Shown piece by piece: positions 19,854 to 62,294 of a DNA stretch of 64,000 nucleotides. Position 1 is the first letter of the stretch. Each line of letters starts with the position of its first letter. The position numbers and the translations under genes are program-made. Source of the DNA: a virus. Below the pieces are notes generated by a model, which saw nothing but the letters and a program-made list of their open reading frames with translations, made no database searches and was not told the DNA's origin. Location: positions 32,001-96,000 of the IMG/VR virus record IMGVR_UViG_3300047444_000617; one strand, 5' to 3'.

Positions 19854-20534
19854 TTACTTCTTGAGCGGCTTGACGGCGCTCGCGGGGAACAGGCCGGGCT
19901 GGGTGACGCGCGGCTTGCGGGCGGCCGTCGACTTCGGCTTGACCGCCTTGGGGCCCTCGCTGGCGGCCAGACCGAACTGCTGTGGGGCGCGGACCTGGCT
20001 CGGGCCGAACAGACCCTTCTGCACGGCGCGCTGCGGCGCCTTGGGAGCAGCCGGTGCCGGAGCCGACGGCTTGGCGGGGGCGGAGTACGGCTTGTCGAAC
20101 TCGCGCAGGTCCTGCACCTGCGAGGGGTGCGGGGCGGCCATCGGTGCGCTGGTGTGGGTGCTCGGCCGGTTGAAGGCGTTGTGGAAGTCCTCCCACGCGC
20201 CGCCCGACGGCTTGCTCTGCGCCTGGATGGAGTCCATCCGGGCGTTGAAAGTATGAAGGAGGTCGGAGGCTGCGGCGCTGTGCTTGGCCTGCCAGGTGTC
20301 GGCGGAGCGGCTGAACGACTTGCCGACCTTCTGCACGTCGCCGCTGGGGGTCGAGGAGGGGGCCTGGGTGGGCGCCGGGGAACCCTTCGGGCCCGGTCGG
20401 CGGCTGGGGGTCCTGGCAGGGTTCTCCAGGGCGCTCAGGCGGTCCTCGACGGAGCGCTTGCCGTGGAACTGCAGCGGGTGCAGGTAGCGGTCGCGGAACT
20501 GGGTGGCTATGGAGTGGAAAGCGAAGGCGCTCAT
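19854..20534 (-). CDS. Pro/Ala/Ser/Lys-rich, probably disordered protein with repeated QxGLF motifs
   Basis: ATGA coupling at 20531-20534; QKGLF, QPGLF. Confidence 0.65.
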   Translation of the reverse strand: MSAFAFHSIATQFRDRYLHPLQFHGKRSVEDRLSALENPARTPSRRPGPKGSPAPTQAPSSTPSGDVQKVGKSFSRSADTWQAKHSAAASDLLHTFNARMDSIQAQSKPSGGAWEDFHNAFNRPSTHTSAPMAAPHPSQVQDLREFDKPYSAPAKPSAPAPAAPKAPQRAVQKGLFGPSQVRAPQQFGLAASEGPKAVKPKSTAARKPRVTQPGLFPASAVKPLKK

Positions 20535-20830
20535 GGTCGGGTGTCCCTCCGGACGAAGTAGAGGTAGCGGTGTCCGGCCAGGAAGGAGGCGAGGAAACCG
20601 ACGTTGATCAGTGACCGCGCCGAGGTGGCTGAGGTCAGGAAGACCGCCGTGAAGGCGACGACGTTGGCGCTGTAGACGAACAAGGTGGCGGCCAGCCACT
20701 TCTCCGCCCGGCCCAGCCGGTACCAGACGGGGAGGTTCGCGCGCAGCAGCAGTGCCGCGAAGGACGCGCCGGTCAGGACGGCGAGGATGCGTGCGATGGC
20801 GATGACGACGAGGTATCCGTAGGTGCTCAA
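20531..20830 (-). CDS. Membrane protein (about 3 TM)
   Basis: TTGA coupling; three hydrophobic segments. Confidence 0.65.
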   Translation of the reverse strand: MSTYGYLVVIAIARILAVLTGASFAALLLRANLPVWYRLGRAEKWLAATLFVYSANVVAFTAVFLTSATSARSLINVGFLASFLAGHRYLYFVRRDTRP

Positions 20831-21321
20831 AGGATCTCCATGTGTGGGCGCTGGTCTTCTTCGCGCAGTGCTTGCTGACGCTCCACCTCCTCGCGCAGTA
20901 CCGACCAGGGGGTGACGGTTTCCTTGTAGTCGGGCCGGAACCTGGGGGATGCGTAGTTGGGGTGGAGGTAGTTCAGGACCGCTACGCCGTGGGCCATCAC
21001 GTGCGCGGCGATGGTGGGGTCCGGCTCGATCAGCAGCTCGACGCTGCACCCGGCCTGGCGGAGACGGGAGATCTGCTGCATCCGGCGCTCTCCGGGGTCT
21101 TCGGGGTCGCGGAGTTTCGCAGGGGTGATGTAGGGGTGCTTGTTGAAGCCGTTGACCCGCAGCCAGTAGTTGACCGGCTCGATGTCGGTGTCGTCGGTGA
21201 TCAGGGCGACCTTGTAGGTCTCCATCAGGCCCCAGTACAGGCGCTGGCCCTGGTGGATGACGGCCTGTCCGACCTCCTTGGCCAGTACCCCCTCGACGAC
21301 AATGGCGACGGTGGCGGTCAC
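20827..21321 (-). CDS. HAD-fold-like protein lacking the DxD nucleophile motif
   Basis: GTGA coupling; VAIVVEGVLA where HAD has hhhDxDGxL; hhhhT motif II (VALIT). Confidence 0.5.
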   Translation of the reverse strand: MTATVAIVVEGVLAKEVGQAVIHQGQRLYWGLMETYKVALITDDTDIEPVNYWLRVNGFNKHPYITPAKLRDPEDPGERRMQQISRLRQAGCSVELLIEPDPTIAAHVMAHGVAVLNYLHPNYASPRFRPDYKETVTPWSVLREEVERQQALREEDQRPHMEIL

Positions 21322-22313: not shown

Positions 22314-22338
22314 GACAACGATTCTAGCCGGAAATGGT

Positions 22339-22374: not shown

Positions 22375-22391
22375 TCTAGTTGGTATTTCTC

Positions 22392-22778
22392 TTACATCTT
22401 GAGGGCGGCGCGGAGCCGGGCCTCCTCGGCCTGCCGCTGCATGGCGGCGCCCGCCATGATCATCTGCTGCTGGGTGCGCTGGGCGGTCTCCATGGCCTGG
22501 ATGTCCTTCTGCACCACGGAGGCCGCACCGTAGATGTCGTCGAAGGTGGCGCCTCGGTCCAGCACCAGGTCGAGGGCGATGGCGAGGTTGGCGTCCGCCA
22601 CGACGGCGCCGTCCTTGCCGACGACGACGAGGAACGCGGTGGTGACGCGGGTGCCCGTCTCCTCGGCGGTGGGCGGGTTGTCCTCGGCCATCTTGGCCAG
22701 GGCCTGCTTCTGCTCGTCGGTGAGGTCGGTATGAAGCGGGGTGCTGGTGGTCTGGCCGAGGATCGGGATGTCAGTCAT
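22392..22778 (-). CDS. Hypothetical protein
   Basis: GGAG RBS, helical Q/A-rich C-terminus. Confidence 0.7.
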   Translation of the reverse strand: MTDIPILGQTTSTPLHTDLTDEQKQALAKMAEDNPPTAEETGTRVTTAFLVVVGKDGAVVADANLAIALDLVLDRGATFDDIYGAASVVQKDIQAMETAQRTQQQMIMAGAAMQRQAEEARLRAALKM

Positions 22779-23395: not shown

Positions 23396-24394
23396 TTACT
23401 TGCCGGTGGCCAGGTAGCGGCCGAGCAGGACGTAGGAGTCCCCGCCCGTCGCGCCCTGGATCGCGACCTGCTTGCCGTTGATGACGACCTGGCCCGCCTT
23501 GGCGTGCGTGTAGCCCAGGGCGGCGTTGGCCGGACCGCCGACCGCGACGACGACGTCACCGGCAGCCAGAGCCGCCTTGGCCACGTCCACACGGCCGGTC
23601 GAGACGGCACCCTTGGGCTGGAAGGCGTCGGTTGCCGCCGCTGCCGTCAGGGTGTCGACAGCCTCGCCGAAGATGACCATGGTGTACGCCTTCGTGGGAG
23701 CAGGGGTAGGTGCGGGAACGGGCTTGGGGGTCACGGGGATGACCACCGGCGGCTTGTTGATGACCGGGACCGGGACGGGCTTCGGCTTGGGAGCCGGAAT
23801 GGCCAGGGCGGCCCAGGTATGAAGGTCACCGTTGAACATGTCGTTGTCCAGGCCGCCGACGATGCCGTACTGGTGCAGCGTCCACACCTTCCACGGCCCG
23901 ATCCTGGGGTGGCCCGCCGGGTTGGCCGGGTCGGCGATCCACAGCGGGTAGGACGTCAGGACGGCCTTGTTGGCCGCCGAGCACGCGGCGTAGACGTTGG
24001 TCATCCAGTACTCGTTGACGTACAGGATGGGAGAGGCACCGGTCTTGGCCTTCACGTGCGCCAGCCACCGCAGTGCGTACTCCGCCCGCTGGGTCCACGA
24101 GCCCTGATCCCACTCCAGGTCCAGCACCAGCACATCGCCGATGACGGCCTTGGCCTTGGACAGGAAGTAGTCGGCTTCCTTGATCGGGTCGTTGGCGGGG
24201 TGCGCGAAGTGGTAGTGCCCGATCGCCTTCTTCGCCTTGCGCGCCGCAGCCACGAACGTGTCGTGGTCCGGGTCGTGGAAGGTCAGGCCCTCGGTCGCCT
24301 TGGCGACGACGAAGGCGTTGCTGCTGCTGGCCACCGCAGCGAGCACCGTCTTGGAAGCGTTGACGTTCGCGACGTCGACACCGTGGAGAGACAT
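23396..24394 (-). CDS. Endolysin, GH25 muramidase + Pro-rich linker + C-terminal cell-wall-binding domain
   Basis: GVDV, KATEG, GHYHFA, LDLE, LWIA, HQY, D.D motifs of GH25. Confidence 0.88.
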   Translation of the reverse strand: MSLHGVDVANVNASKTVLAAVASSSNAFVVAKATEGLTFHDPDHDTFVAAARKAKKAIGHYHFAHPANDPIKEADYFLSKAKAVIGDVLVLDLEWDQGSWTQRAEYALRWLAHVKAKTGASPILYVNEYWMTNVYAACSAANKAVLTSYPLWIADPANPAGHPRIGPWKVWTLHQYGIVGGLDNDMFNGDLHTWAALAIPAPKPKPVPVPVINKPPVVIPVTPKPVPAPTPAPTKAYTMVIFGEAVDTLTAAAATDAFQPKGAVSTGRVDVAKAALAAGDVVVAVGGPANAALGYTHAKAGQVVINGKQVAIQGATGGDSYVLLGRYLATGK

Positions 24395-24399
24395 CTGAT

Positions 24400-25110: not shown

Positions 25111-26364
25111 TCAGAACAACCTCTGCTGGCCCGGGTGGACCTCGGTATGAAGCCCGTTGCCCTTTCCGTAGGAGTTCAGGGAGGAGTCGTGGTTGTCTCC
25201 CCGTCGGCGCTTTTCCTCGCTCCACTGCGCGGACTGCATGTTGGTCAGCGAATTGAGGCCGCGCTCCGTCATCACCTTGCGGGCGACGTGGTCGTGGAAG
25301 GCGTGGATTCCCTTGATGCCCATGTAGGCCTCCTGGGACTCGCTACCCTTCTTGCTCTCCAGGTGCGGGGCGAAAGCGCCACCGCCGGAGTGCGTGTCGG
25401 ATACCCAGAACTGCGACGAGCCGTGGGGGTCGACCCACGAGTTGTGATAGGCGGAGACCTTCTCACCGGCTGTCGGCTTCCACGCGTCGGACAACTTCTC
25501 GCCGCCCAGGACCTTGTGCGTGACGTCGATGGCCAGCGCGTGGTTTCGCGGGTAGCCGTTGGCCGGGTACGCGCGGGTGTCCCCTTCCTTCTTCTCCAGT
25601 TTCGTGAACTGCTTGCCGCTGCGGGCGGTGACGGTCTTCTCGACCTTGTCCTCGCGCGGGACGTAGTAGTCGGGGTGGTAGTGGTACTCCTCGCCGGTGC
25701 GGCCCGACTTCGCCCACTGAATCGCGTGGGTGGCTGCCTCGTCGTTGGGGTAGACCGCCCTGCCCGTCTCCTTGTCCGGCCGCACGAACACGTTCTGCGG
25801 GGACGTGATGGCGTTGGCGGCGGCCTGCACACCGAACGGGACGCCGTTGTTCTTCGCCGACGTCTTCAGCCGCGCACGCGGGCTCAGGGAGCCGTTGCGG
25901 GTGTGGTCCTCGGCCGGGCTGTAGAAGGAGTCGTGGTGCCCGCCCTCGTGGTCGTACGCGCGGTCGACCTGGGCACCCAGAGCGCGGTGAGCCGACTCGG
26001 GGGTGACGCCGAACTTCGCGGCCGAGCGCAGCACGCGGGCCTGCTCGTGCGGCGCGAAGTCCTCCCACCGGCGATTGACCGGCATCATGTCGCGCGTGGG
26101 GTTCATGGTGTGCTGGCCGTGCCACACGTCCGACCCCTCCGGCCCGGCCAGTTCCATCTGGCCGTGCAGGTTGGGAGCCTTGTCGGTGTTGCCCATGAGC
26201 CGGTACGACTGCCGTGGGCTGGCGGCGGCCCCCGGCTTGTCCTGGATGGTCTGGAAGCGCTCGGGGTGCGCGCCCTCGAAGGACACGCGCTTGACGGTGG
26301 CGTCCTTGACCGTCTTGTTGTAGACGCGGGTCTCGGCCGCCTTCTCCGCTGGGGTCTTGGCCAT
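25111..26364 (-). CDS. Putative HhH/EndoIII-like DNA glycosylase-fold protein
   Basis: AITSPQN...GEKVSAYHNS...VSDTH...MQSAQW pattern; ends QQRLF. Confidence 0.4.
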   Translation of the reverse strand: MAKTPAEKAAETRVYNKTVKDATVKRVSFEGAHPERFQTIQDKPGAAASPRQSYRLMGNTDKAPNLHGQMELAGPEGSDVWHGQHTMNPTRDMMPVNRRWEDFAPHEQARVLRSAAKFGVTPESAHRALGAQVDRAYDHEGGHHDSFYSPAEDHTRNGSLSPRARLKTSAKNNGVPFGVQAAANAITSPQNVFVRPDKETGRAVYPNDEAATHAIQWAKSGRTGEEYHYHPDYYVPREDKVEKTVTARSGKQFTKLEKKEGDTRAYPANGYPRNHALAIDVTHKVLGGEKLSDAWKPTAGEKVSAYHNSWVDPHGSSQFWVSDTHSGGGAFAPHLESKKGSESQEAYMGIKGIHAFHDHVARKVMTERGLNSLTNMQSAQWSEEKRRRGDNHDSSLNSYGKGNGLHTEVHPGQQRLF

Positions 26365-28838: not shown

Positions 28839-29441
28839 TCAGGCCTGGGCCAGGATCTCGTGCACCTTGGTATGAAGGTCCTGGAGGTCCCCGTCGTTGA
28901 CCAGGTGGGAGTCGAACCACTTGTCGGGCAGTTCCTTCTCCGACTTGTGGTCGTTGACGGCGCCGTAGCCGGGCCGGGTGATCTTGATTAGCAAGCCCAA
29001 GCGAGAGTCGATGGCCTGGTGCTCGTTCTCGAACCGCAGGTCGGTGAAGACGTAGCGCTTGCTCTTGTCCAGGCCCTTAAATGCGGCCTCGACCCACACG
29101 TCCTGGCTGATCATCTCCCGGCCGACCTCGGTGCCCAGCACCTGCAGCATGCGGCGGATCTCGTCGTAGGTGCGCTTGGCGTCCTCCCAGCCGATCTCGT
29201 CCACGATCTCCTGCAGCCGGAAGTCCCGGCCGTAGGAGTCGGACAGGATGACGGGGTTGAGGACGTACAGGGCCTCGCGGAGGGTATCGGCGAAGGCGAC
29301 TCGCTCGTACCCGTACTCGGTCAGGATCCGGGCGACGGCGTCCTTGCCGGTTCCGGGGTATCCGTGGAGGCCGATGAAGCCGGGCAGCCACTCCAGGATG
29401 ACCTGGGGAAGCCTGTCGGTGGGGGAAAGCGTGGTGCTCAC
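28839..29441 (-). CDS. Deoxynucleoside monophosphate kinase
   Basis: IGLHGYPGTGKD P-loop, FADTLRE, RRMLQVLGTEVGR, TDLRFENE, HKSE. Confidence 0.88.
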   Translation of the reverse strand: MSTTLSPTDRLPQVILEWLPGFIGLHGYPGTGKDAVARILTEYGYERVAFADTLREALYVLNPVILSDSYGRDFRLQEIVDEIGWEDAKRTYDEIRRMLQVLGTEVGREMISQDVWVEAAFKGLDKSKRYVFTDLRFENEHQAIDSRLGLLIKITRPGYGAVNDHKSEKELPDKWFDSHLVNDGDLQDLHTKVHEILAQA

Positions 29442-30695: not shown

Positions 30696-31402
30696 TTGGA
30701 CTTCACCACCGACTTCGGCGACTCGTCGTTCTTGAGGGTGGCCTTGAAGTAGGTACCGGCCGCGTCGTGGTAGACGACGACACCCTCGGGGTCCATGAAG
30801 CCCGGCGCGATCAGGGAGCCCTCGGACTCCAACGTATGAAGCGCCTCGTCGACTGCTTCGTTCAGCCACTTGCCGTCGATGACGGAAATGACCGGCACCA
30901 CGGTGACGATATCCGGGGCGGGCTTGGCCTTGGGGAAGGTCTGCAGGTAGTGCTCGGTGATCTCCGGGTCGTTCGAGTCGTACCAGCGCTGGGTGTTGAA
31001 CAGGGCGAAGCGCTTCTCGTCGAGCCCGTAGCCGGACTGGATGCCCTGGCCGAACCACTCGCCGTAGTGCTTGCCCTCGCCGAGCCCGGCCAAAGCGACG
31101 GCGTTCTCCCACACCCACGCAGCGAACTGGAAGTTGTCGTTGCCGGGGGTGAGCCAGCGGTTCCGGCTGCCCGCCCGGACGATGAAGCGCTCGTAGCGGT
31201 TGTCGGTCTCGTTGAACAGCGTGACACCGACTCCGGTCGTACCCTCCAGGTACTGGGGGTCCATCAGGGGGACGGCGTCGGGGAGCCGGGTGACCTCGAT
31301 CAGGCCGTTGGTGCCGTTGATCTTCTCGGTGATGACCACACGGCGGTGCAGTCGCGGGATGGGCCGGAACTTCGGGTAGTCGCTCGCCTTGAGGACGGTC
31401 AT
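30692..31402 (-). CDS. RNA ligase (Rnl2-like nucleotidyltransferase domain)
   Basis: TEKINGTN (motif I), GSRNR, YGEW.G.GIQ, FALFN, PEGVVV, K..K. Confidence 0.8.
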   Translation of the reverse strand: MTVLKASDYPKFRPIPRLHRRVVITEKINGTNGLIEVTRLPDAVPLMDPQYLEGTTGVGVTLFNETDNRYERFIVRAGSRNRWLTPGNDNFQFAAWVWENAVALAGLGEGKHYGEWFGQGIQSGYGLDEKRFALFNTQRWYDSNDPEITEHYLQTFPKAKPAPDIVTVVPVISVIDGKWLNEAVDEALHTLESEGSLIAPGFMDPEGVVVYHDAAGTYFKATLKNDESPKSVVKSK

Positions 31403-33838: not shown

Positions 33839-34182
33839 TACCACGGCAGGATCTCCTCGGCTTCCGCACTCGGGTGCGCCAAGGTATGAAGCGCGAGAAA
33901 TGTCTCTTCGGACATCGTGATCCAGTTCCTTCCACTGGCCATCTGAGTGCCGAAGAGCATTTCCCTGCCGTCGATCAGGGCCTGCTTCTCTGCGGTTATC
34001 AGTTCTTTGTCCTTCAGGGAGTACGAGCCCTTGCTGGTGACTTTGTACTCGATGGAGTAGTCGGGGGTCCTGACATCGTTCTTCCGGACCCAACCATTTC
34101 CACTACCGGCGTTCACCGTCCCGCCGAGAAGTTTCGCTCCTCGCCTCTCCTGCGCCTGGCTCTTCTTCAACATGTCCGCCAT
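33838..34182 (-). CDS. PD-(D/E)XK nuclease / resolvase-like protein
   Basis: SQAQERRGAK..GG...AGSG..W..KNDV...IEYK. Confidence 0.7.
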   Translation of the reverse strand: MADMLKKSQAQERRGAKLLGGTVNAGSGNGWVRKNDVRTPDYSIEYKVTSKGSYSLKDKELITAEKQALIDGREMLFGTQMASGRNWITMSEETFLALHTLAHPSAEAEEILPW

Positions 34183-34318
34183 ATGCGGCCTCCAGGAGAT
34201 TCGCGAGGAGATTGAACTTCTCGTGGGCCCTGCCCTGGCGCCGGGAATACCGGACGCCGAGGAACAGGATGTAAACGGCCGCGACCAGCAGGAGCAGCAA
34301 GGCGATCAGGGCCACCAT
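34103..34318 (-). CDS. Small membrane protein
   Basis: TGATG coupling; MVALIALLLLLVAAVYILFLG. Confidence 0.5.
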   Translation of the reverse strand: MVALIALLLLLVAAVYILFLGVRYSRRQGRAHEKFNLLANLLEAAYGGHVEEEPGAGEARSETSRRDGERR

Positions 34319-35502
34319 CAGGCGGCCTGGGTATGAAGCCCGTCGGCTTCCTCGGCCTTGGGCCTGCGCGACACCTTCTTGGTGCCCGCGCTCTCGGCGG
34401 TCTCCAGGTCCTCCTCGGAGATGCTGCGCTCGTCGGCACGGGTGGATGCGGCCAGGACCTTCTGATAGATGCTGGCCAGCAGTTCGGGGTCCTCGCGCAG
34501 GCCGGTCAGCAGGGCGTCCTTGCCCTGCCAGCGCAGCACCGGCTTGCCCTTGGCGTCGTACTGTCCGTTGTCGATCTCGAAGAAGGCGCCCTTGCGCTGG
34601 ATGACGTCGAAGAGAATGCCCATGGTCTGGATTTCCTTGGCGGTGTCGTACGCACCGCGCGGGAAGTTCAGGTAGGGCGCCGCCCGGAAGTAGGCGTCGA
34701 TGGTGGCGATCTGCTGCGGGGCCGCCGACTTGTTCTTGATGGTCTTCACCTTGACGACCTGGCCGACATTCACCTTGCCCTTGCCGGGCCGGGCCTCCTG
34801 AATCCATTCGTCGCGCCGGACCTCGACTCTGGTGTAGAAGGCGTAGTTCTTGGCGTTTCCGCCGGGAGTCGTGGTCGGCGTGCCGTGAGGGCTGAACTTG
34901 CCGATGGCGTCGCGGTACTGGTTGATGACGATGCCCAGCATCGGGCGGTCGTCGGGGTCGGTCATGCTGCGCTTGGTCGCGGCGCCGGACTTGCGGAAGA
35001 ACTTGCCGGTGAGGCGGGCGCCGAGCGCCATGGTCGCCTCGTCCATGTCCTTGGCGGACTCCTCGTCCGGGATGAGTGCGGGGTAGGAGTCGAGCACGAT
35101 CATGTCGACGGAGCGGGAGGCGGCGAAGTCCAGCATCGTCTGGTAGGCGAACTCCATCTGCTGGGTGGGGACGACCAGGACGCGGTTGTTGTCGACGCCC
35201 AGGGCCTCGGCCTGGTCGACGTCGTAGTGCTCGGCCGCGATCCACAGGGCGCAGAAGTTCGGGTCGAGTGCCTGGTTGGCGGCCAGCGTCTTGTAGACGA
35301 TGAACGTCTTGCCGTGAGACTCCCGGCCGATCACCTCGACCCACTGATTGCCTGGCCAGCCGCCACCGAGGGCGATGTCCAGGGACAAGGAGCCGGAGGT
35401 GAAGCGCTTGGCCACCTTCATCTCCGAGGCGAAGCAGATGGCCCCGGGGATCTCCTTGTTGACCTTGGCGATGAGTGCGAGGGCTTCCTTGTTGACGGTC
35501 AC
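34318..35502 (-). CDS. recA: RecA-like recombinase
   Basis: SGSLSLDIALGGG, GRESHGKT Walker A, IVLDS Walker B, INQYR, TPGG, KNK. Confidence 0.92.
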   Translation of the reverse strand: MTVNKEALALIAKVNKEIPGAICFASEMKVAKRFTSGSLSLDIALGGGWPGNQWVEVIGRESHGKTFIVYKTLAANQALDPNFCALWIAAEHYDVDQAEALGVDNNRVLVVPTQQMEFAYQTMLDFAASRSVDMIVLDSYPALIPDEESAKDMDEATMALGARLTGKFFRKSGAATKRSMTDPDDRPMLGIVINQYRDAIGKFSPHGTPTTTPGGNAKNYAFYTRVEVRRDEWIQEARPGKGKVNVGQVVKVKTIKNKSAAPQQIATIDAYFRAAPYLNFPRGAYDTAKEIQTMGILFDVIQRKGAFFEIDNGQYDAKGKPVLRWQGKDALLTGLREDPELLASIYQKVLAASTRADERSISEEDLETAESAGTKKVSRRPKAEEADGLHTQAA

Positions 35503-35649
35503 GGGCAGCCCCCGCAGGTATGAAGTGTCATGTGGTGTTGTTTCTCCTGATCGCGTAACGCAGAACCGGTAGCCCCCATACCATATCTGGCAGGGAACTA
35601 CCGGTCCAGCGATGTATCAACTAGTCAGACGAAGATCTTTTGATCAGTG

Positions 35650-40761: not shown

Positions 40762-40842
40762 GACGGGCTCCTGTGGTGGTGGCGGATGGGAAAGCTGAGG
40801 GGAGGCCCCAGCTCGGTGCTGGAACCTCCCCGTCGGAGCCGG

Positions 40843-43367: not shown

Positions 43368-43712
43368 TTACCGCTTCTTGTGGGTGCCCTGCTTGGCCGC
43401 ATACCTCTTGGCGTCACGGTCGGTCTGGTCCCGGCGCACGGCGGTCTCGACGACGTCCTGGTAGACGGTAACGACACGGTGCTCGGCGGGGTCGACGACG
43501 GCCACAAGGTCTCCGCGCACGTGGCGGACCTGTCCGGGAACCCTCGCAGAGGGGTAGGTATGAAGCGGCTCGTTGGCCGCCAGCAGGACGTCCTTGCTGG
43601 TCCACCCCTTGGCGGCGGCCTGCTTCTGTGCGTGGTAGGTCAGTTTGTAGTTCGGGGCCTCCGCGACGGAGGTGCCCCAGTCGATCCCGAGAGCTTCAGC
43701 GATGGTGGTCAT
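43368..43712 (-). CDS. DUF4258-like (RelE/BrnT-fold) protein
   Basis: LTYHAQ.Q...G...DV...VVD...VVTVY pattern; own promoter and AGGAGG RBS. Confidence 0.6.
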   Translation of the reverse strand: MTTIAEALGIDWGTSVAEAPNYKLTYHAQKQAAAKGWTSKDVLLAANEPLHTYPSARVPGQVRHVRGDLVAVVDPAEHRVVTVYQDVVETAVRRDQTDRDAKRYAAKQGTHKKR

Positions 43713-47158: not shown

Positions 47159-48404
47159 CGGTGTTCTCCTCCTTGGCGTCGGCGAAGGGGTCCTCGTTCA
47201 GTTCCTCGAACTTCCCCGTCTCCCAGTCCCATTGGCAGTACGTCTCCAGGGGCGGGCAGTTTCGGGCCAGGACGACCTTGATCTTGTTGATGTTCTCGTC
47301 GTCGGTTCGCTCGACGCCGAGAATCACGTCGGAGTCCTGGGCGAATGAGGAGGAGTACCCGATGGAGTCGGAGGTGATCCCCTTCTTCTTGTTCATCTTC
47401 CATTCCAGGACCTGCGTGGAAATGACCATGGGGATCTGCAGGTTCTTCGCCATGCGCTTGAATCCCCGGGTGAGATTGGTGAGCGCCTGACTGGATCCCT
47501 GGGCCTCTCCGAGTTCGTCCTGCATCATGTAGATGCCGTCCACGAATACGATCGTCGGCCGGATGGTGTCGATCTTCGACTGCACACCGGTCAGCGTCGT
47601 GGCATTCATGGAGTCCGAGGAGAGGAAGAAGGAGGGCATTGCCTCCAATTCCCGCAGGGCCTTTTCGAGTTTGTCCCACTCGGTCTTCTTGAGGGTGCCG
47701 TTCCGCAGCCGGGCGTGGGAGATCCCCGCGCGGATCGCGTCGAACCTCTCCTCCTGCTCCTCGTTGCTCATCTCGAAGCCGACGAACAGCGGGCGCTCGC
47801 CGAACAGGTGCGCTGCCATGGCAGCCAGCAGCAGCAGGGTCGACTTACCGGCCTTCGGGGGACCGACGAAGGTGACCAGTTGCTCCTTCTGGAGGCCCTG
47901 GGTGGCCCTGTCGATCGTCGAGAAGCCGGTGGGGATGCCCCGGAGCCCGTCGGGCAGGTCCTTCAGCGACAGGTACCGTGCAAGGCGTTCCTGGCCGGTC
48001 TCCGTCAGGTCGGTGTCCCGGGAGTTGGGCACGGCCGAGGCGATGTTGGCCAGCGTGCGCGACAGCGCCTCGATGGCGGCGTTGGCGTTGTTCTCCTCGT
48101 GTGCGTCGACCGAAGCGGCCAGGCCCTCTTCCAGGAGGGCCAAAGTATGAAGTTCCCGCAGCCGGTCGGTGAGGACCTGCATGGGGTCCTCGACCTTGAC
48201 GAACTTGTAGGTCGGGAAGTCGGTCTTGATGGTGGCCAGCGAGGGCACCTGGCCGTAGGTGCCCTTGTGCCGCAGGATCGCCTTGAAGACGGCCCTGTTG
48301 TCCGCGTCCTGGAAGAAGTCAGGCGTCACGCCTGCATCCGCGACTTCTGACAGGTCCTTGTCCTGGATGACGCGGGAGACGAGCAGCCGCTCGAAGTCCG
48401 CCAC
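47136..48404 (-). CDS. dnaB: DnaB-like replicative helicase
   Basis: GIPTGF..ID, GPPKAGKS, FEMS, VFVDG, SFAQDSD, ARN. Confidence 0.9.
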   Translation of the reverse strand: MADFERLLVSRVIQDKDLSEVADAGVTPDFFQDADNRAVFKAILRHKGTYGQVPSLATIKTDFPTYKFVKVEDPMQVLTDRLRELHTLALLEEGLAASVDAHEENNANAAIEALSRTLANIASAVPNSRDTDLTETGQERLARYLSLKDLPDGLRGIPTGFSTIDRATQGLQKEQLVTFVGPPKAGKSTLLLLAAMAAHLFGERPLFVGFEMSNEEQEERFDAIRAGISHARLRNGTLKKTEWDKLEKALRELEAMPSFFLSSDSMNATTLTGVQSKIDTIRPTIVFVDGIYMMQDELGEAQGSSQALTNLTRGFKRMAKNLQIPMVISTQVLEWKMNKKKGITSDSIGYSSSFAQDSDVILGVERTDDENINKIKVVLARNCPPLETYCQWDWETGKFEELNEDPFADAKEENTDGWQGGF

Positions 48405-48847
48405 TACAGTGCTCCGATCAAGGTGGTGGGGACAGCCGGGAGCATGCGCCCCTTGCTGCCGTAGATCAGGTGGTGTTCGTTGTCGTAGACGGCGGCCACG
48501 TCCGGCATGAGAGCCAGGCGGCGGGCCAAGCGCTGGGGGTTGTCCGCCCACACGCGGCCGACAGGAAGGCCCTCGACGTCCAGGCGCCACTCCACTGCCT
48601 CAGCGAAGTCCTCACCGAGGTAGGTGATGACGTCGACCGAGTAGCGGTAGCGCCAGACGGTGTCCCAGATGACCCGGGCCAGTGGCTCGTTGATCTCGTA
48701 GGCCTTGACCGCGCGCTTCCACTGGCGGGCCTTGCGGGCGAGTGATTCGCCAGCTCGTGCGCGCGGCGTGGGCAGAAGGCCCAGCAGTCCCTCGTAGACC
48801 AGGACCAGGCGAGGGGAGACTTCGTTGCTGATGTCCCCGCCCTGCAT
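48404..48847 (-). CDS. Hypothetical protein, possibly degenerate HAD fold
   Basis: LVLVYEGLL in place of DxDG; VDVITY. Confidence 0.55.
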   Translation of the reverse strand: MQGGDISNEVSPRLVLVYEGLLGLLPTPRARAGESLARKARQWKRAVKAYEINEPLARVIWDTVWRYRYSVDVITYLGEDFAEAVEWRLDVEGLPVGRVWADNPQRLARRLALMPDVAAVYDNEHHLIYGSKGRMLPAVPTTLIGAL

Positions 48848-48895
48848 CAGGTGCGCTCCGCCGTCGTGCGGAGCCGGGTATGAAGCGCGCGTTGC

Positions 48896-49555
48896 TCATG
48901 CGGCACGGCGGTCTCCTCCGACAACCTTCAGGTGCGTGAAGGCCCCCTGGATGAAGGAGCCCATGGAAGGGTTGTAGATGTCGCCCCACTTGACCGGCGG
49001 GACGTTGGAGGTGACCAGGGTCGGCCGGGCCTCGCGGTGTCGCAGGCGCAGCAGGTCGTCCAGCAGTCCCTCGGCGTAGCCGGTCTTGGTCTTGTGCTCC
49101 TTGCCGACGTCGTCGAGCAGCAGGACGGGTGCCTTCTCGGCCGAGACGATCTGGTCCTGCACGGCCCACCAGCGGGCCACGGCCTCGGGCTCCTTGCGGT
49201 CCTGCAGGGTCATCCGCTCGATGTTCAACTTCACGTAGTCGGAGTAGGCCAGCCAGGCGACCGGCAGGCGGCGCTCGAAGTAGACGTCCATCAGCGTGGA
49301 GGTGGCCAGGGTGGTCTTTCCGGTTCCGGGAGGACCGACGACCAGCAGGCCCTTGCCGATCTGGGACCAGTCGGCCGGGTACTGGTCGATGGGCCGCTTG
49401 TCGGTGACGTAGTGGTCCTGGAGGTTGTCGACGAACTTCTGGCAGATCTCCTTGTGGGGAGAGTCCGCCAACGTATGAAGCCGCAGGTGTCGGTAGTGCG
49501 GTGGGATTCCGTACTCCTTCAGCCGGAGCGCGTGGACCCGGGGGTCGGTCGCCAT
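48896..49555 (-). CDS. DnaC/IstB-like helicase loader ATPase
   Basis: GPPGTGKT, LLLDDVGKE, R.R...PTLVTSN, GGDRR. Confidence 0.88.
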   Translation of the reverse strand: MATDPRVHALRLKEYGIPPHYRHLRLHTLADSPHKEICQKFVDNLQDHYVTDKRPIDQYPADWSQIGKGLLVVGPPGTGKTTLATSTLMDVYFERRLPVAWLAYSDYVKLNIERMTLQDRKEPEAVARWWAVQDQIVSAEKAPVLLLDDVGKEHKTKTGYAEGLLDDLLRLRHREARPTLVTSNVPPVKWGDIYNPSMGSFIQGAFTHLKVVGGDRRAA

Positions 49556-49676: not shown

Positions 49677-50717
49677 TCAGGTCCAGTAGTCCTCGTTGTA
49701 CCTGTTGGCCTCCACCTGATCGGCAGCGTCCGACTTGCCGCGACGCTGGGTCAGCAGTCCCCTGGCGGCCAGGAAATCCCTCCAGGCGGGGACGTTCTCC
49801 GATCGCTGCCAGGAAGGCGACCAGTAGGTGATGATCATCTTGGTGATCTCCTCCTTCGTGGTGCCCTCCCGCATCCACCGGCCGAAGTTCCCGGACAACG
49901 CTCCGAAGTTGACAGCCCCTGGCACCGGATGGCCGACCTCCTGAGCCCGCTTTTCGAAGAAGGAGGCCAGTACCTCTGACGGCCTCGTAGACCGCCTCTC
50001 ACGACGTTGGCGGACCGGAGGGGCCAGGTCTCCGTCCGAAGCCGGGAGATCGCCGTACAGGGTGAACGACGGGGTGTTCTCTTCGAGAGACTGAGCCACC
50101 ACATACGCCGGGTCCAGTTCCCTCTCCGCCTGGGCGGCTTCCTCGGCCTCCTGCCTCCGGGTCTTCTTCCGGCCGCCCTTGCGCGGAGCGCGTACCGCAT
50201 CCCAGCCCTTGCCACCCGGCCTCGGGAGGGCCTCCTCAGCATGGTCGGGATCTGACCGCGCCGACCGGCGCGGTGGAAGAGACGTAGTCTCTTCTATTTC
50301 TCCTACTACTAGTTGGTTACTAGGGTTGGGTGAAAAATCTGCAGGGTGCAGATTCTGCAGGGTGGGATTGTCCGGGTTTGCATCATGCAGATTCTGCATG
50401 TCAACTACCTGCGGGACCGGCTCTTCCACCCACTCCGAAACGGGACGAATCCGGCGCACGACGGAGGCGTAGAGAGCCGCTTCCGGGGGTGCCTTCTCCT
50501 TCGGGACGGACTCGATGATGCCCCGCTCTTCCAGGCTCTTCAGGCAGGCGTAGACGCCACGCTCGGACATGCGGGTGCGCTTGGCCAGGGTCTTGACGGA
50601 CTCCCACATCATGCGGTGGTCGTCTCCGGCCGCGTCAGCGATACGCAGCAGGACCAGCAGGTCACCCTTGCCCACAGGCGCGTACTGCCAGACCTCGGAC
50701 ATGATCAGGATGCTCAA
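49677..50717 (-). CDS. Replication initiator (N-terminal winged HTH)
   Basis: LLVLLRIAD.A...SVKTLAKRTRMSERGV...LKSLEERGII; upstream of DnaC/DnaB. Confidence 0.75.
   Translation of the reverse strand: MSILIMSEVWQYAPVGKGDLLVLLRIADAAGDDHRMMWESVKTLAKRTRMSERGVYACLKSLEERGIIESVPKEKAPPEAALYASVVRRIRPVSEWVEEPVPQVVDMQNLHDANPDNPTLQNLHPADFSPNPSNQLVVGEIEETTSLPPRRSARSDPDHAEEALPRPGGKGWDAVRAPRKGGRKKTRRQEAEEAAQAERELDPAYVVAQSLEENTPSFTLYGDLPASDGDLAPPVRQRRERRSTRPSEVLASFFEKRAQEVGHPVPGAVNFGALSGNFGRWMREGTTKEEITKMIITYWSPSWQRSENVPAWRDFLAARGLLTQRRGKSDAADQVEANRYNEDYWT
50290..50400. repeat. Candidate replication origin: iteron-like repeats plus AT-rich tract inside the initiator gene
   Basis: TGCAGATTCTGCA at 50347 and 50386; TCTGCAGGGTG at 50338 and 50354; adjacent AT-rich 50290-50340. 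Confidence 0.55.
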
Positions 50718-50812
50718 TTGCCCGCCCTGCCAAGGCGGTAAGTATGAAGCGGTAGCGGCATGATATGGTCTCTCTCATCTCGGGGTTTGTGGTGGGCCTC
50801 CGGGTGTGGTGG

Positions 50813-50876: not shown

Positions 50877-52043
50877 CTACTCCCCGTCGATGTCGAGGCC
50901 CTTCTCCTCGATCTCCGCCCGGGTCAGTTGGACGACCTTCTGTCCGGCCGGGATACGGCCACGGCCGCGTCGGCTGTAGTTGCCCTTCTCGTCGACCAGG
51001 AACGCGAAGGTCTTGGACTCGTCACGCGGACGGCCACGGCGACGACGTCCCGTGGGCTCCTCCTGCTCCTCCTCGTCCTTCTGCTGGGCCGCCAGGGCCT
51101 TGTAGCCCTCCCCCTTCGCCGGGTCCTCCCCGAGCGTATGAAGGGCCTTGCGCAGCAGTTCGGTCAGCGGTCGCTCGCGCACGTCGGCCTGGTTGATCAC
51201 GGCGTTGCGCTCGTCCTCCAGGCGCAGGACGGTGTAGGCCGCCTCCAGAGCGGCGCGGACGAGCGGGAGGTCGATCTCCGTCTCGGAGGACGGGGTGGCA
51301 TCCCGCTGGGCCTTCTGCGCGGCGCGGTTGACCTGCTGCTCCAGGTCCTCCTCGACCGGGTCCACCTCGGGCTCGGGCTTGCGGCTGCGACGGCTGCGCT
51401 TGGGGGCAGGCTCGTCCTTGGGCTCCTCCGGCTCGTCCTCGGTGAGCGGCTCCTCCTCCGGCTGGGCCTCCTCCGGCTCGGCCCGGCGGCCACGACGGCG
51501 ACCGCGCTTGGGCTCCTCCGGCTCGGGCTCCGGCTCGGGCTCCGGCTCCTCGGCGGCCTCGGGCTCACCGAAGGAGATGTCGTCGAGCCCAGCGGTGAGG
51601 TCCTTGGCCTTGATACCCACCTGATCGGCGGCGTCCAGGAGGAGTTCGGCCTCCTCGCTACCGTCCTCGCCCCACAGCAGTACGAGGTACTTCTCCCCCT
51701 CGGCCGCCTCCAGCAGGTCGACGACCTTCGACGTGACGTTGCTGGCCGTGGCCGTGGAGTCGGCGGCCCGCAGGATCTTGTCGAGCGCCCGGGACTTCTC
51801 GCCGTCGGTGACCGCGACGAACGGCAGGTCCACGTACTCGGACCAGTTCAGCACGGCCTCCAGGCCGTCGGACAGGTGCGTCTTGGTGATCGGGAAGATC
51901 AGGTTGATCTCGCGGTCGGAGGGGGCGGGGTAGCCGTCGGCGTCCTCGTCGCCGAAGCCGAGCCAGTCGTTGAGCAGAGCCTTGATGTTGTCGAGGTCCA
52001 CGTCGGCCGAACCGGCGAAGGCGAGGGTGATGGGCTTACTCAA
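50877..52043 (-). CDS. Acidic protein with Rossmann/SLOG-like N-terminus and C-terminal AT-hook / Lsr2-like RGR motifs
   Basis: ITLAFAGS...; EP-rich linker; RRRRGRPR and RRGRGRIPAG. Confidence 0.6.
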   Translation of the reverse strand: MSKPITLAFAGSADVDLDNIKALLNDWLGFGDEDADGYPAPSDREINLIFPITKTHLSDGLEAVLNWSEYVDLPFVAVTDGEKSRALDKILRAADSTATASNVTSKVVDLLEAAEGEKYLVLLWGEDGSEEAELLLDAADQVGIKAKDLTAGLDDISFGEPEAAEEPEPEPEPEPEEPKRGRRRGRRAEPEEAQPEEEPLTEDEPEEPKDEPAPKRSRRSRKPEPEVDPVEEDLEQQVNRAAQKAQRDATPSSETEIDLPLVRAALEAAYTVLRLEDERNAVINQADVRERPLTELLRKALHTLGEDPAKGEGYKALAAQQKDEEEQEEPTGRRRRGRPRDESKTFAFLVDEKGNYSRRGRGRIPAGQKVVQLTRAEIEEKGLDIDGE

Positions 52044-52453: not shown

Positions 52454-52945
52454 TCAGACCGTGGCCGGGGCAGGCTGGGCGACGTCCACCGGCGGCTCGG
52501 GGGCAGGCTCGGGGGTGGGCTCCGTCGTCTCGTCGGGGACCGCGTCGGTGCTCAGCGGGAAGTTGTTCGACGGGCCGGACTCCTCAGCCTCCAGCGCCTG
52601 CTCGAAGTCCGAGGTCAGTTCCTCGACGGGACGGATATGAAGCGTCTTCGCCTCGCGCACCAGCGCGTTCTGCAGCCAGCCGAACCAGCCGTACTTCTTG
52701 AGCAGGGAGTGGTAGAAGACAGTGCCGGTCAGCCAGGCGAGGAACGCGGCTCCCAAGGCTGGTGCCCAGGTGTAGTTCTCCGGGTCGCCCTGGCGTACCG
52801 CCGCGAAGCCGGTAGCGGTGGCCAGGACGGCGTGCGCGAAGCCCTTGATGGTCGGGCTGGTCGAGGGCCTGGTGAACACCGCCACGATGGCGGGCAGCAC
52901 CAAGCCGAGGGTGAGGGCCGCCACGTCGGCGTAGTTAGTAGGCAT
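52454..52945 (-). CDS. Holin-like membrane protein
   Basis: Three TM segments, acidic/Pro tail; AAGGAAG RBS; follows tail genes. Confidence 0.6.
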   Translation of the reverse strand: MPTNYADVAALTLGLVLPAIVAVFTRPSTSPTIKGFAHAVLATATGFAAVRQGDPENYTWAPALGAAFLAWLTGTVFYHSLLKKYGWFGWLQNALVREAKTLHIRPVEELTSDFEQALEAEESGPSNNFPLSTDAVPDETTEPTPEPAPEPPVDVAQPAPATV

Positions 52946-59958: not shown

Positions 59959-60374
59959 CCGCTGATGACCTCGCTTACGGTGCCGCCCACGCTGACCACG
60001 GCGGTGTTGGTCTGCTGCGCGAGGCTGCTCGGGGAAGCCCCGGCCTCACGGCGTATGTAGTCGACCTCGATTCGCGCGAGGGACATCTGCGAGGCGTCAG
60101 GAATAGGGGTTGCCTTCTGGAGTACAACGCCGGGCTCATAGGCGGTGAATGCAGCGGTCACGGCACGGCTGATTTCCTGCGCGACAAAGGACGCGTCAGG
60201 GTCGAAAAGCAGATCCGCCACAGGCACCCCGTAGTTCGGGAGCATGACTCTCTCCCCCGGCTGCGTGCCGACGAGAGCATTCACGTGCTGGGCGATCTGC
60301 CTGTCCGGATTCGTCTCGACGGCGATTGTCCCGTCGGGAGCTAGGCGAAAAGGAATGGCGATCTCGGTAGGCAT
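59955..60374 (-). CDS. gp25/GPW-like baseplate wedge protein
   Basis: T.PGERVMLPNYG...LLF...YEP. Confidence 0.88.
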   Translation of the reverse strand: MPTEIAIPFRLAPDGTIAVETNPDRQIAQHVNALVGTQPGERVMLPNYGVPVADLLFDPDASFVAQEISRAVTAAFTAYEPGVVLQKATPIPDASQMSLARIEVDYIRREAGASPSSLAQQTNTAVVSVGGTVSEVISG

Positions 60375-60434
60375 GCTTGCATTCTCCCAGGGCGGAAGAA
60401 TTGCTTGTTAGCGCCTACCGAGACCGCCGGGAGA

Positions 60435-62294
60435 TCAGACGAGGTTGCCGATCGGGATCTTCGCGTTGATCATGAACGTGTCGTTCACCGCGATCGTCGG
60501 CAGCCCCTGACCCCGGAACTCGCCACTGCTGTTCACGTAGGTGGCGATCGACGCCGTGGCCGTGGACATCCGGATGGCACCACCCGCAGGACTGACGTCA
60601 CCCCCGAGGCTGACGCCGGGAAGGCCGGTGGCGATCAGAGCACTCGGAGAGGTGCTGGTGGCATGGAAGACGCCGACCAGGTGGATGTTGTCCTCCCCGT
60701 CTCGACGCCACCGGAGGTTCGGGTAGGCACCACCGATGCCTGTGCCCTGCGCCCATCCGGTACCCATGACCGCGTCGGTCCAGGACTCCGCGTTACCAGA
60801 GAGGTCGGCCTTCACCACCGCGCCGCTGACCAGCAGGTTGGCCGCGTAGGTACCGGTGCGCTCGGTCACCGTTACGCTCGGCGGGAGGGGGAGTGTCGAG
60901 TCCCCTTCGGAGATGGTGAGCCGCGCCGCGAGGTTGGGGCCGCCACCTCCCTCGAAGCCGGAGTCCACCCGGACAGCACCTGGGCCGTCGCTGATCATGG
61001 TCGACGAGGCGCCGGTGTTGTTCGCTCCGGCGTCGGTGAAGACCAGTCCGCCACCAGACAGAGAGGTGGTGGACGTGCCACTGGTCGTGGAGATGTCCCC
61101 GTTGGCGCCACCGATGTCGGCCGTCACGGCGCCCGTCGAGTCGTACACCTTCATGCTGTTGTCACCCGCCTCGTTCAGCGTGATGCGCTCGCCGGACGTG
61201 GCTGTCTGGATGGTGGATCCGGTGATCGTCTTGCCGTCGATGGCGGTCGCGGACAACTGGGATGCGGAGATCGTCCCCACCGTGATCTTGGTGGCGTCGA
61301 TGCTGGCGATGACACCACTCGACGCGGTGATCGTCCCGGCCGCCATCTCGTTGGCCGTCACAGAGTTCGCCGCGATGTCACTGGTACCTGCCTGCTTGGG
61401 AGTGTCGGAGTTCGCGCCCGAAGGGGCGGAGGCGATGCCGACCTTGGAGTACGCGATCAGCCGGTAGTTGTAGGAGTTGGCGTAGTTCTGCACCGAGTCG
61501 TAGAGGAAGTCCGGGCCGGTCAGGGTGCCTACGACCACCGGGGCGGGGAACGCCGGATCCGTGTCGCGCTCGACCTGGACGTGGGAGAAGATCAGTGGCA
61601 TCGCTGTGCCGGTGTGGTCCAGCCCGTCCCAGGTAACGCGCAGGCCGCCCAGGACACCCAGGACTGCGGGCGTGGAGGGGACCGGCGGCGGAGTCGTGGA
61701 GGACGCGGTGGTGATGTCCGTGGAGGACCACAGGGAGGCGTTGCCGGAGTTGTCGAGGGCCTGGACGCGGACGAAGAAGTCCACGCCGGTATGAAGGCCG
61801 TCGAAGACGACGAGGGTGTCCTCAGTGATCTGGCCGCCGGACCAGTTGGTGCCGTCGTAGGAGGTCTGCACGACGTAGTGCGACAGGTCGACGAGGTTGG
61901 TCCCGTCCTGGTTCTCCGTCGGCGCAGTCCAACTGGCCGTCACGTGCGCCCGCGTGCTGCCGTCGTCGGCGATGTACTGCACGGTCGACAGTGTCAGCGC
62001 GGTCGGCTGCTTGGGAGGCATCGAGTCGTACTCAAGACCCCCTACCTGGTCCTGTACTTCCTTGATGCCCAGCGGGGAGTACACCGGCTGGGTGACGTCA
62101 CCACCGGAGAACTGCACCCACACGTTCTGTCCGGCCGCAGGCACGGTGTTCGTCGGGGAGGCCGGAACCGCCCAGGCGCTCTCCGCTCCGCCCAGGATCT
62201 GAGGTATGAGCAGGGTGACGCGGGCCTCCTTGAGGGGGTCCACGTTGTTGGCAACCGTCCCTGGATACATGCCAAGAACCGGGTCAGACGACAT
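60435..62294 (-). CDS. Baseplate spike (gpV/Vgr OB-fold) fused to fibronectin-III-like and beta-helix regions
   Basis: YPGTV...DP...RV...AWA.P...P..G..VWV.F.GGD...PVY; FN3-like W..P...Y. Confidence 0.8.
   Translation of the reverse strand: MSSDPVLGMYPGTVANNVDPLKEARVTLLIPQILGGAESAWAVPASPTNTVPAAGQNVWVQFSGGDVTQPVYSPLGIKEVQDQVGGLEYDSMPPKQPTALTLSTVQYIADDGSTRAHVTASWTAPTENQDGTNLVDLSHYVVQTSYDGTNWSGGQITEDTLVVFDGLHTGVDFFVRVQALDNSGNASLWSSTDITTASSTTPPPVPSTPAVLGVLGGLRVTWDGLDHTGTAMPLIFSHVQVERDTDPAFPAPVVVGTLTGPDFLYDSVQNYANSYNYRLIAYSKVGIASAPSGANSDTPKQAGTSDIAANSVTANEMAAGTITASSGVIASIDATKITVGTISASQLSATAIDGKTITGSTIQTATSGERITLNEAGDNSMKVYDSTGAVTADIGGANGDISTTSGTSTTSLSGGGLVFTDAGANNTGASSTMISDGPGAVRVDSGFEGGGGPNLAARLTISEGDSTLPLPPSVTVTERTGTYAANLLVSGAVVKADLSGNAESWTDAVMGTGWAQGTGIGGAYPNLRWRRDGEDNIHLVGVFHATSTSPSALIATGLPGVSLGGDVSPAGGAIRMSTATASIATYVNSSGEFRGQGLPTIAVNDTFMINAKIPIGNLV

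Follow-up and report, generated by a model that had tools for sequence, protein, structure and literature searches.

A 110-kb temperate Streptomyces phage carries about forty copies of one eight-letter word in its non-early genes, on the sense strand and read as Leu-His-Thr in rare codons, which raises the question of what kind of signal is being written into so many unrelated genes. The window analysed here is a stretch of 64,000 nucleotides, positions 32001-96000 of a 110,248-bp virus record (genome G000 below), and coordinates refer to the window unless stated otherwise. The initial annotation had reported 22 exact copies of GTATGAAG on the + strand and none in the opposite orientation, and this observation was confirmed: all 22 positions hold the exact word and the - strand of the window holds none, while dinucleotide shuffles gave a mean of 0.48 copies and a maximum of 2. 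The ATATGAAG variants noted at 17924, 19504 and 52635 are also real, and correspond to genome positions 49924, 51504 and 84635. Over the whole genome there are 35 copies of GTATGAAG on the + strand, one on the - strand and six of ATATGAAG, and GTATGAAG is by far the most over-represented 8-mer, with 35 copies against 1.2 expected under an order-2 Markov model (-log10 p 37.7). The GC content, previously estimated at about 68%, is 65%.

Almost all genes of this phage are on the - strand, and every copy lies on the sense strand of its gene. All 30 copies inside called genes are in phase CTT|CAT|AYN, while codon usage predicts 0.045, 0.035 and 0.18 copies in phases 0, 1 and 2, respectively. The tripeptide LHT occurs 33 times against 4.1 expected, an eight-fold over-representation that might have suggested a protein-level motif or a compositional or codon-usage artefact. 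However, 30 of these are encoded as CTTCATAC, with two rare codons, and only 3 as CTGCACAC; sister phages have Leu-Asn-Thr at the same places, the third residue can be Thr, Ile or Met, outgroups have unrelated residues at these positions and no shuffle exceeded two copies. These data already refute that reading.

Within the window, where all sites are on the - strand in the sense of transcription, the first two are variant copies CTTCATAT, one at 17924..17931, with no aligned site in relatives, and another (Leu-His-Met) at 19504..19511, inside a TGT/DpdA-like gene (18249-19790), where A-type relatives (see below) have ATATTAAG. They are followed by exact copies in the middle of ORF 19854-20699 (20251..20258), a C-type-only site at which A-type relatives have CTGCACAC; 14 codons after the ATG of ORF 22392-22778 (22729..22736), orthologous in all five genomes compared; in the middle of the GH25 endolysin gene 23396-24394 (23817..23824); 13 codons before the stop of ORF 25111-26364 (25145..25152); 12 codons before the stop of ORF 28839-29678 (28870..28877); in ORF 30692-31402 (30834..30841); 17 codons before the stop of a 114-aa nuclease-like ORF, 33838-34182 (33884..33891); and 6 codons before the stop of recA, 34318-35502 (34331..34338). 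Further copies are found in the middle of the class II-like ribonucleotide reductase gene 35650-37614 (37022..37029), in the PolA ORF 38534-41137 at the start of the exonuclease domain (40470..40477), in the middle of ORF 40843-42036 (41495..41502), 33 codons after the longest start of ORF 41882-42409 (42303..42310), in ORF 43368-43712 (43558..43565, a C-type-only site), near the 5' end of the SNF2 helicase gene 44015-45760 (45636..45643, a gain private to this genome), in the DnaG primase gene 45948-46919 (46294..46301, C-type-only, with CTGCACAC in the A-type) and in the DnaB helicase gene 47136-48590 (48145..48152, C-type-only). The remaining ones are located 25 codons after the ATG of ORF 48896-49555 (49473..49480), in ORF 50877-52043 (51136..51143), at 52635..52642 (a variant copy CTTCATAT conserved in the relatives G001 and G002) and in the baseplate spike gene 60435-62294 (61789..61796), where A-type relatives have GTATTAAG. 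The names given initially to RecA, PolA, the primase, DnaB, SNF2, the endolysin, the initiator (HTH_36, initiator-like), the reductase and the spike were checked, with the identities stated here.

Three copies had been described as intergenic, but they lie in frame in tiny ORFs whose stops overlap the next start (GTGA, TGATG and TTGA). The copy at 35518..35525 occupies codons 3-5 of a 10-codon mini-ORF (35499..35531, MTLHTCGGCP), the TGA of which overlaps the GTG of recA; in the relative G003 the same ATG-x-word is RecA's own N-terminus. The copy at 48878..48885 is inside a 19-codon mini-ORF (48847..48906) with a GGAGGAG-N6-GTG start, upstream of gene 48404-48847 and with a stop overlapping its ATG; in G001 and G002 the word lies instead in the C-terminus of the upstream gene. 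The copy at 50742..50749 is inside the 15-codon leader mini-ORF (50714..50761, MPLPLHTYR...) of the HTH_36 initiator-like gene 49677-50717, whose TTG start overlaps the stop of the mini-ORF; the mini-ORF is conserved in length in G001 and G002.

Comparison with other genomes indicated that the word defines a clade of IMG/VR relatives, with 24-47 copies each, together with an integrated prophage in Streptomyces sp. NPDC002088, while BRock-like phages lack it. These relatives carry either CTTCATAY (C-type, or CAT-type) or CTTAATAY (A-type). Each genome is nearly pure, and about 28 orthologous sites differ by that one base in concert, although proteins are only about 75% identical. Orthologous sites are kept at 80-95%, against a 22-25% background for 8-mers at 78% DNA identity, and the rare codons CTT and CAT/AAT are maintained. 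Type-specific sites sit where the other type has a natural CTG-CAC-AC or CTG-AAC-AC, so sites are made by recoding. It has to be considered that the relatives are metagenomic and partly near-identical, so that these counts are not independent. The core of the initial interpretation, a selected and oriented nucleic-acid signal rather than a protein motif, is thus strongly supported, whereas the interpretation as a whole is only partly supported, since most of the specific candidates proposed with it fit poorly and a signal read on the mRNA was not among them. The existence of two alleles calls for a sequence-specific reader acting in trans.

One rival reading is a polar DNA signal for replication, recombination, packaging or nicking, such as a Chi/KOPS-like signal, a primase start site or T5-like nick sites; its Chi/KOPS-like, packaging and nick forms had been among those candidates. 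The strict strand bias and the spacing of 0.4-3.5 kb in the replication region would be in favor of it, and we infer that the word would lie on the lagging-strand template if forks move with transcription. However, orientation follows transcription: the one reversed copy per genome lies 5-16 codons into a reversed small gene, downstream of a sigma70-like promoter, and is kept in 8 of the 9 whole contigs compared (G007, a 74% fragment, has none), although that gene has diverged. There are also gaps of 19 and 9 kb, positions and not just density are conserved, and the frame lock and the mini-ORFs are left unexplained. In Streptomyces sp. NPDC002088 the prophage has about 40 copies in about 97 kb, all on one strand, while the other 10.6 Mb hold about 68 copies on both strands, so the host chromosome is neither enriched nor strand-biased. 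We consider this reading very unlikely.

The distribution of the sites also bears on a -10-only middle or late promoter of the T4 TATAAATA style for a phage sigma factor or activator. The word is an AT-rich 8-mer in GC-rich DNA, sense-oriented, absent from the early region and similar in copy number to T4 late promoters, and seven genic copies lie 3-17 codons before a stop, upstream of the next start. Nevertheless, many copies lie 2-17 codons after well-supported SD and start codons, at least nine of them 2-8 codons after conserved ones (for example downstream of the portal gene, in the baseplate gene and in RecA of G003), about 13 are in mid-gene, and two lie about 40-70 nt downstream of sigma70-like, host-type promoters. 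No sigma-like protein turned up among about 70 proteins scanned, a set that left out many small ORFs, and a promoter gives no reason for the frame lock. This possibility is therefore regarded as the least likely of the DNA-level readings. Copies are about twice as common near gene boundaries, although this could simply reflect the tolerance of protein termini to substitutions.

A DNA-level, orientation-dependent operator of the stoperator type, also proposed initially, remains a serious rival, although we consider it less likely than a signal in the mRNA. In this view, a phage repressor or elongation-control protein would bind the asymmetric word of about 12 bp in the duplex and block or modify RNA polymerase travelling in one direction, and the C and A alleles would mark heteroimmune groups. 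The word is asymmetric, present in tens of copies and in one orientation relative to transcription, and its consensus differs between related phages, which are the defining traits of cluster A stoperators (PMC6550527). The family is temperate, with Tyr and Ser recombinases and a prophage with host flanks, and preferences at flanking positions -2, -1, +9 and +10 extend the footprint to about 12 nt, like a protein site on either nucleic acid. On the other hand, no copy lies in or near the nine strong early promoters, and none was found between 31.3 and 49.9 kb of the genome, where seven of these nine CTTGACA-N17-18 promoters with -10-like elements lie, six of them at 43.3-49.6 kb; this 19-kb early region, which is also marked by nine extended SDs, would therefore escape repression. 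In addition, about 85% of copies are inside ORFs, the core is only 8-9 bp, all new gains are in one phase and the downstream hairpin tendency described below is unexplained. No co-varying DNA-binding protein was found, and residues diagnostic of the allele are spread over many genes. Three proteins did co-vary with the allele in nine genomes, but they were refuted as readers by recombinant genomes: a 285-aa Zn/coiled-coil protein by genomes L120-122, and a 66-aa protein and a 69-aa HicA-like protein by the NPDC002088 prophage.

Our tentatively preferred explanation, favored over each rival but short of even confidence, is that the word is a cis-acting control element of all non-early genes, read on the sense transcript as single-stranded (G)CUU-MAU-AYC(K), usually just 5' of a hairpin, by one trans-acting reader specific to each phage lineage, with M being C or A in each phage. 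The word contains no G, and the 40 nt downstream of it fold at -13.9 kcal/mol, compared with -10.3 for controls and -9.5 upstream; for 20 window sites the mean z is about -1, and 7 of 20 are at or below -1.8. This statistic may be inflated by sites that lie near intergenic structures and, apart from this modest signal, every observation fits an orientation-dependent DNA operator equally well. An odd 86-nt tRNA-His(GUG) occurs only in CAT-type genomes (10 of 14 contigs, against 0 of 6), although it is absent from the genome studied here; we take this to show that the word is translated and that its decoding matters. The reading on the mRNA is the one that accounts best for the frame lock, the downstream hairpins, the coupled mini-ORFs and the type-restricted tRNA-His. 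As for the frame lock, the 9 + 3-5 silent opportunities per proteome in phases 1 and 2 are never used. The ribosome may take part in the reading, or phase 0 may simply be the cheapest way to encode a 12-nt word, because its soft flanks fall on wobble positions, and in the A allele phase 1 contains TAA and phase 2 contains TTA-ATA; coding cost and these constraints would also explain the frame lock under a DNA operator.

If this explanation holds, the word would have been written into tolerant places of about 40 coding sequences and leader mini-ORFs, preferentially near the beginnings and ends of genes, and DNA replication, recombination, lysis and virion genes would be placed under one common post-transcriptional control, by binding or cleavage that sets translation or mRNA life, with the promoter-rich early region being exempt. 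Our analysis establishes the existence of the word, its orientation and frame lock, its positional conservation, the concerted one-base allele switch, the restriction to a clade, the flank preferences and the hairpin tendency, whereas action at the level of RNA rather than DNA, the sign of the effect and the existence of a reader, for which no protein could be identified, are inferences, as would be binding of a repressor and a block of elongation in the stoperator model. The strongly selected signal appears to be of a kind not yet described.

Among known systems, the stoperators of cluster A mycobacteriophages (L5 gp71 sites; PMC6550527, PMC9283540) share with this word its asymmetry, the tens of copies spread over a temperate actinophage genome, the single orientation relative to transcription, the location mostly outside promoters and a consensus that differs between related phages. 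Here, however, the core is 8-9 nt (about 12 with soft flanks) rather than 13-14 bp, most copies are inside ORFs and all in one codon phase, none are in the early promoter region, no cognate repressor was found and sites tend to be followed by a hairpin. Post-transcriptional regulons of the T4 RegB/RegA type resemble the proposed mechanism in that one phage factor acts on a short RNA word present in many phage mRNAs, often near translation starts, to set a temporal class. RegB targets GGAG in early mRNAs, while the word described here marks non-early genes, lies inside coding sequence and exists in two alleles, and no RNase or RNA-binding protein could be assigned to it, since the 69-aa HicA-like protein gives only weak hits (Pfam E 0.05, PHROG 353 E 0.0016) and does not track the allele.

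In the bldA/TTA-codon control of Streptomyces, rare codons are likewise confined to a regulated gene set in a GC-rich genome, with a tRNA gene associated with them, but the unit here is a fixed 8-9-nt three-codon word and not a single codon, CAU and AAU are read by the same host tRNAs as CAC and AAC, and the phage tRNA-His is missing from this genome. Programmed +1 frameshift sites such as CUU-UGA-C (prfB) and CUU-AGG-C (Ty1) also have CUU in the P site followed by a rarely used codon, here CAU or AAU, and a fixed 3' context with a downstream structure. However, the zero frame runs on through the conserved domains of RecA, PolA, DnaB and other proteins, and the +1 and -1 frames show no early stops and no conserved ORF. 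Finally, the start-associated sequences (SAS) of cluster K mycobacteriophages are conserved short words of unknown function tied to gene starts in a subset of actinophage genes. They lie upstream of start codons, while the word described here lies inside ORFs, with many copies far from any start, and in this genome the nine CCCCACACCAGGAGG elements of the early region are the closer analogue of SAS.

All 22 copies of GTATGAAG listed in the initial annotation were confirmed at their positions and lie on the + strand of the window, while dinucleotide-preserving shuffles gave a mean of 0.48 copies and a maximum of 2, so that the observation itself holds. The window corresponds to bases 32001-96000 of a 110,248-bp virus record with 65% GC. 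In the whole genome there are 35 copies on the + strand, one on the - strand and six copies of ATATGAAG, three of them at window positions 17924, 19504 and 52635. Under an order-2 Markov model the word is by far the most over-represented 8-mer, with 35 copies observed against 1.2 expected. A GC3-based gene call places nearly all genes on the - strand, so that the word reads CTTCATAY on the sense strand, and all 30 copies located inside called genes are in phase CTT|CAT|AYN, whereas codon usage predicts 0.045, 0.035 and 0.18 copies for the three phases. Leu-His-Thr occurs 33 times against 4.1 expected, 30 times as CTT-CAT-AC and three times as CTG-CAC-AC.

The capsid protein is 73% identical to that of the Streptomyces myophage BRock and its kin, and the structural genes include portal, sheath, baseplate and spike. 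Motif-bearing genes in the window include those for RecA, PolA, DnaG, DnaB, SNF2, a GH25 lysin, an HTH_36 initiator-like protein and a ribonucleotide reductase. Four tRNAs were also identified, as well as a 513-aa TGT/DpdA-like protein (window 18249-19790, - strand; PHROG 887, E 4.5e-78, with no Pfam hit), which lies at the border between the early and the motif-bearing regions and is conserved even in BRock and in the provirus G005, both of which lack the word. An RNA repair module (locus L002, 8458-11157; genome 24458-27157) consists of a Pnkp-like kinase and a T4 Rnl1-like ligase, the latter carrying the word 8 codons after its KxDG motif in the five genomes compared (this genome, G000, and its relatives G001-G004). 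In locus L001 (4155-7298), a tyrosine recombinase of 358 aa, conserved in relatives, sits next to a large serine recombinase of 580 aa that is private to this genome, and the reversed small gene carrying the reversed word lies between them. A 114-aa protein (window 33838-34182, - strand) shows a GSG…D…ExK pattern, read by eye as that of a PD-(D/E)xK nuclease although no family hit was obtained, and its C-terminal 20 residues, around the word, differ by type.

A relative is integrated in a 203-kb contig of Streptomyces sp. NPDC002088 (NZ_JBEOXO010000018.1), where the prophage spans roughly 86-183 kb and has a 20-kb motif-free stretch like the early region here. Its edge (locus L234 of that contig, 17700-20195) is adjacent to an MFS-transporter-like host gene. 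About 40 copies on a single strand are found within about 97 kb of the prophage, while the other 10.6 Mb of the host genome have only about 68 copies, on both strands. The word is therefore phage-specific and the family is temperate on Streptomyces.

BRock, LuckySocke, pSt2308, GiJojo and the provirus G005 have no such word, and a megablast search against phages found nothing. By contrast, IMG/VR contigs with capsid identity of 90% or more do carry it, and they fall into two classes. G001, G002, G008 and G009, like this genome, carry GTATGAAG (24-39 copies plus one reversed), whereas G003, G004, G007 and G010 carry GTATTAAG (20-37 copies, 0.05 expected), which is sense CTT-AAT-AC, Leu-Asn-Thr; these are referred to here as C-type and A-type. 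Each genome is almost pure for its allele, and more distant IMG/VR relatives showed neither a G-type or T-type allele nor any other comparable word. About 28 of about 42 sites are orthologous between the classes and differ only by that base, even though proteins are about 75% identical and DNA is 78% identical. The word, adjusted for type, is kept at 80-95% of aligned sites, against 22-25% for arbitrary 8-mers. At these positions the outgroups G005 and BRock have unrelated residues, so the tripeptide was imposed on the proteins by selection on nucleotides, and a protein-level motif or an artefact is very unlikely. Sites private to one class lie where the other has a natural CTG-CAC-AC (or Gln/His-His-Thr) or a natural CTG-AAC-AC; new sites therefore arise by recoding existing Leu-His-Thr or Leu-Asn-Thr.

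With respect to the frame lock, in the A allele phase 1 contains TAA and phase 2 needs TTA-ATA, so that phase 0 is forced. In the C allele the other phases are codable, and each proteome offers 9 + 3-5 fully silent opportunities in them, none of which is used, while many phase-0 sites cost amino acid changes. This is what ribosome-dependent reading would produce. However, there is a cheaper explanation, since the site has soft flanks (G at -1 in 65% of sites, C at +9 in 89%, and T or G at +10), two of which fall on wobble positions in phase 0, so that this phase fixes exactly three residues and the others about four. Frame calls by local GC3 or by the longest spanning ORF are also crude. We therefore consider the frame lock as suggestive of ribosome-dependent reading, but not decisive. 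A frameshift design was rejected, as the shifted frames show no early stops.

No site lies between genome positions 31.3 and 49.9 kb, a region that holds seven of the nine CTTGACA-N17-18-TAnnnT promoters, six of them at 43.3-49.6 kb, and the nine copies of the 15-mer CCCCACACCAGGAGG, which are ribosome-binding sites (window 6455-17524; genome 38.4-49.6 kb); four of these copies were seen to lie just downstream of strong sigma70-like promoters of that form. Sites are also absent from the 9-kb stretch at genome 84.6-93.8 kb, which holds large ORFs with NlpC/P60 and carbohydrate-binding hits. Sites are about twice as frequent as expected near gene boundaries, with 5 observed against 0.6 expected within 30 nt after the previous stop, and 11 of 41, against 10.7%, within 25 codons before a stop. 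Several lie 2-8 codons after a strong SD and start codon at conserved spacing, as in the gene after the portal gene, a baseplate gene, a lipoprotein and RecA of G003, although a lenient SD and start test was not significant and refinement of gene starts by tblastn was uninformative. The three intergenic copies of the window lie in mini-ORFs whose stops overlap the next start. That of recA (window 35499-35531) has 10 codons and is the detached N-terminus of RecA (M-x-L-N/H-T), separate in G000, G001 and G002 but fused to RecA in G003. The single reversed copy per genome lies in a small reversed gene downstream of its own sigma70-like promoter. These positions argue against a promoter, which we regard as very unlikely, and against replication or packaging signals; polar DNA signals are also regarded as unlikely.

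The word has no G, and the 40 nt downstream fold more stably (-13.9 kcal/mol) than controls (-10.3) or the upstream flank (-9.5). When the word plus 45 nt was folded for 20 window sites, z-scores averaged about -1, with seven at or below -1.8; the word is left unpaired and a hairpin starts 1-4 nt after it. An Rfam search found nothing in the window. Searches of the literature for the word, for BRock and for oriented motifs gave nothing relevant beyond the papers on stoperators.

In the search for a protein that could act as the reader, three proteins co-varied with the allele in the first genomes, but all three were refuted by recombinant genomes. The first was a 285-aa early protein (window 13271-14128, - strand), widespread in phages and Streptomyces prophages, with 72-77% identity within a type and 34-40% between types, so that two deeply diverged alleles (about 37% identity) exist in otherwise similar phages. 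Its AlphaFold2 model (pLDDT 93) shows a predicted coiled-coil hairpin, an invariant HxH/CxxC/CxxC Zn site and a beta domain, and has no PDB match beyond helical hairpins. It was discarded because the recombinants L120-122 combine its C-like allele with A-type words. A 66-aa protein (L001, 17490-17690) and a 69-aa HicA-like protein (L001, 10029-10238, - strand) tracked the allele in nine genomes, the former also in 15 further loci, but the NPDC002088 prophage has their A-like alleles together with C-type words. The model of the 66-aa protein (pLDDT 79, beta-beta-alpha-beta) has no significant PDB match. The HicA-like protein has a GGNH motif and weak Pfam and PHROG toxin hits, and ends with the word (…GLHI); the allele found in the A-type phages, and also in the C-type prophage, has a 14-residue insertion. 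Complex prediction with these two proteins gave no verdict, and neither the models nor the family hits of the three candidates gave a clear function. No type-specific gene or clear cluster of diagnostic residues emerged from a presence/absence scan and a diagnostic-residue scan.

The only feature that follows the allele is an 86-nt tRNA with anticodon GUG (9573-9658 in locus L092 of G001; also L234, 7418-7503), with encoded G-1 and C73, indicative of His identity, but with a Leu-like D-arm and a long variable arm, located next to tRNA-Asn. It is present in 10 of 14 CAT-type contigs, including the prophage, and in none of six AAT-type contigs, although it is absent from this genome. At the least, this shows that decoding of the CAU codon of the word matters.

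Altogether, the sequence data show that the signal is real, strongly selected, tied to transcription units and clade-specific, and that it exists in two concerted alleles, whereas the level at which it is read and the involvement of a type-specific factor are inferred. The interpretation given in the initial annotation was supported only in part, since its idea of a selected, oriented signal is strongly supported and a stoperator-like site remains a serious rival, but the promoter and the polarity, packaging or nicking signals it also proposed are unlikely. Our tentative preference, which falls short of being probable, is a word read at the mRNA level by a type-specific factor. About half of the weight of this reading corresponds to a more speculative version, in itself doubtful, in which the word would be read in frame by the translating ribosome as a three-codon checkpoint, with CUU in the P site, CAU or AAU in the A site, AYC next and the hairpin at the entry channel. 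Passage would depend on the state of one G34 tRNA species, tRNA-His in one lineage and tRNA-Asn in the other, which might be set by phage tRNA genes, by the TGT-like enzyme, by tRNA repair or by a ribosome-dependent nuclease. Translation of about 40 non-early genes and coupled leader ORFs would then be licensed together, in what would be a phage-wide translational switch based on codon context. A stoperator-like or elongation-control DNA operator comes next, as a possible but less favored alternative, and a small share of our judgement rests with none of the readings considered.

This whole-genome regulatory word overrides protein sequence in about 40 essential genes and switches one base in concert between sister phages, and offers a natural, clean system to study how a cis-element regulon and its reader co-evolve, one that is directly testable because Streptomyces sp. 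NPDC002088 carries an integrated relative with the same word. The two alleles may also predict immunity or exclusion groups, and the word is a simple marker for recognizing this phage clade in metagenomes. If it is read on the RNA or by the ribosome, it is a new way for a phage to time or silence most of its genome, whereas if it is read on the DNA it extends stoperator-type global silencing to large Streptomyces myophages, in a compact form embedded in coding sequence.
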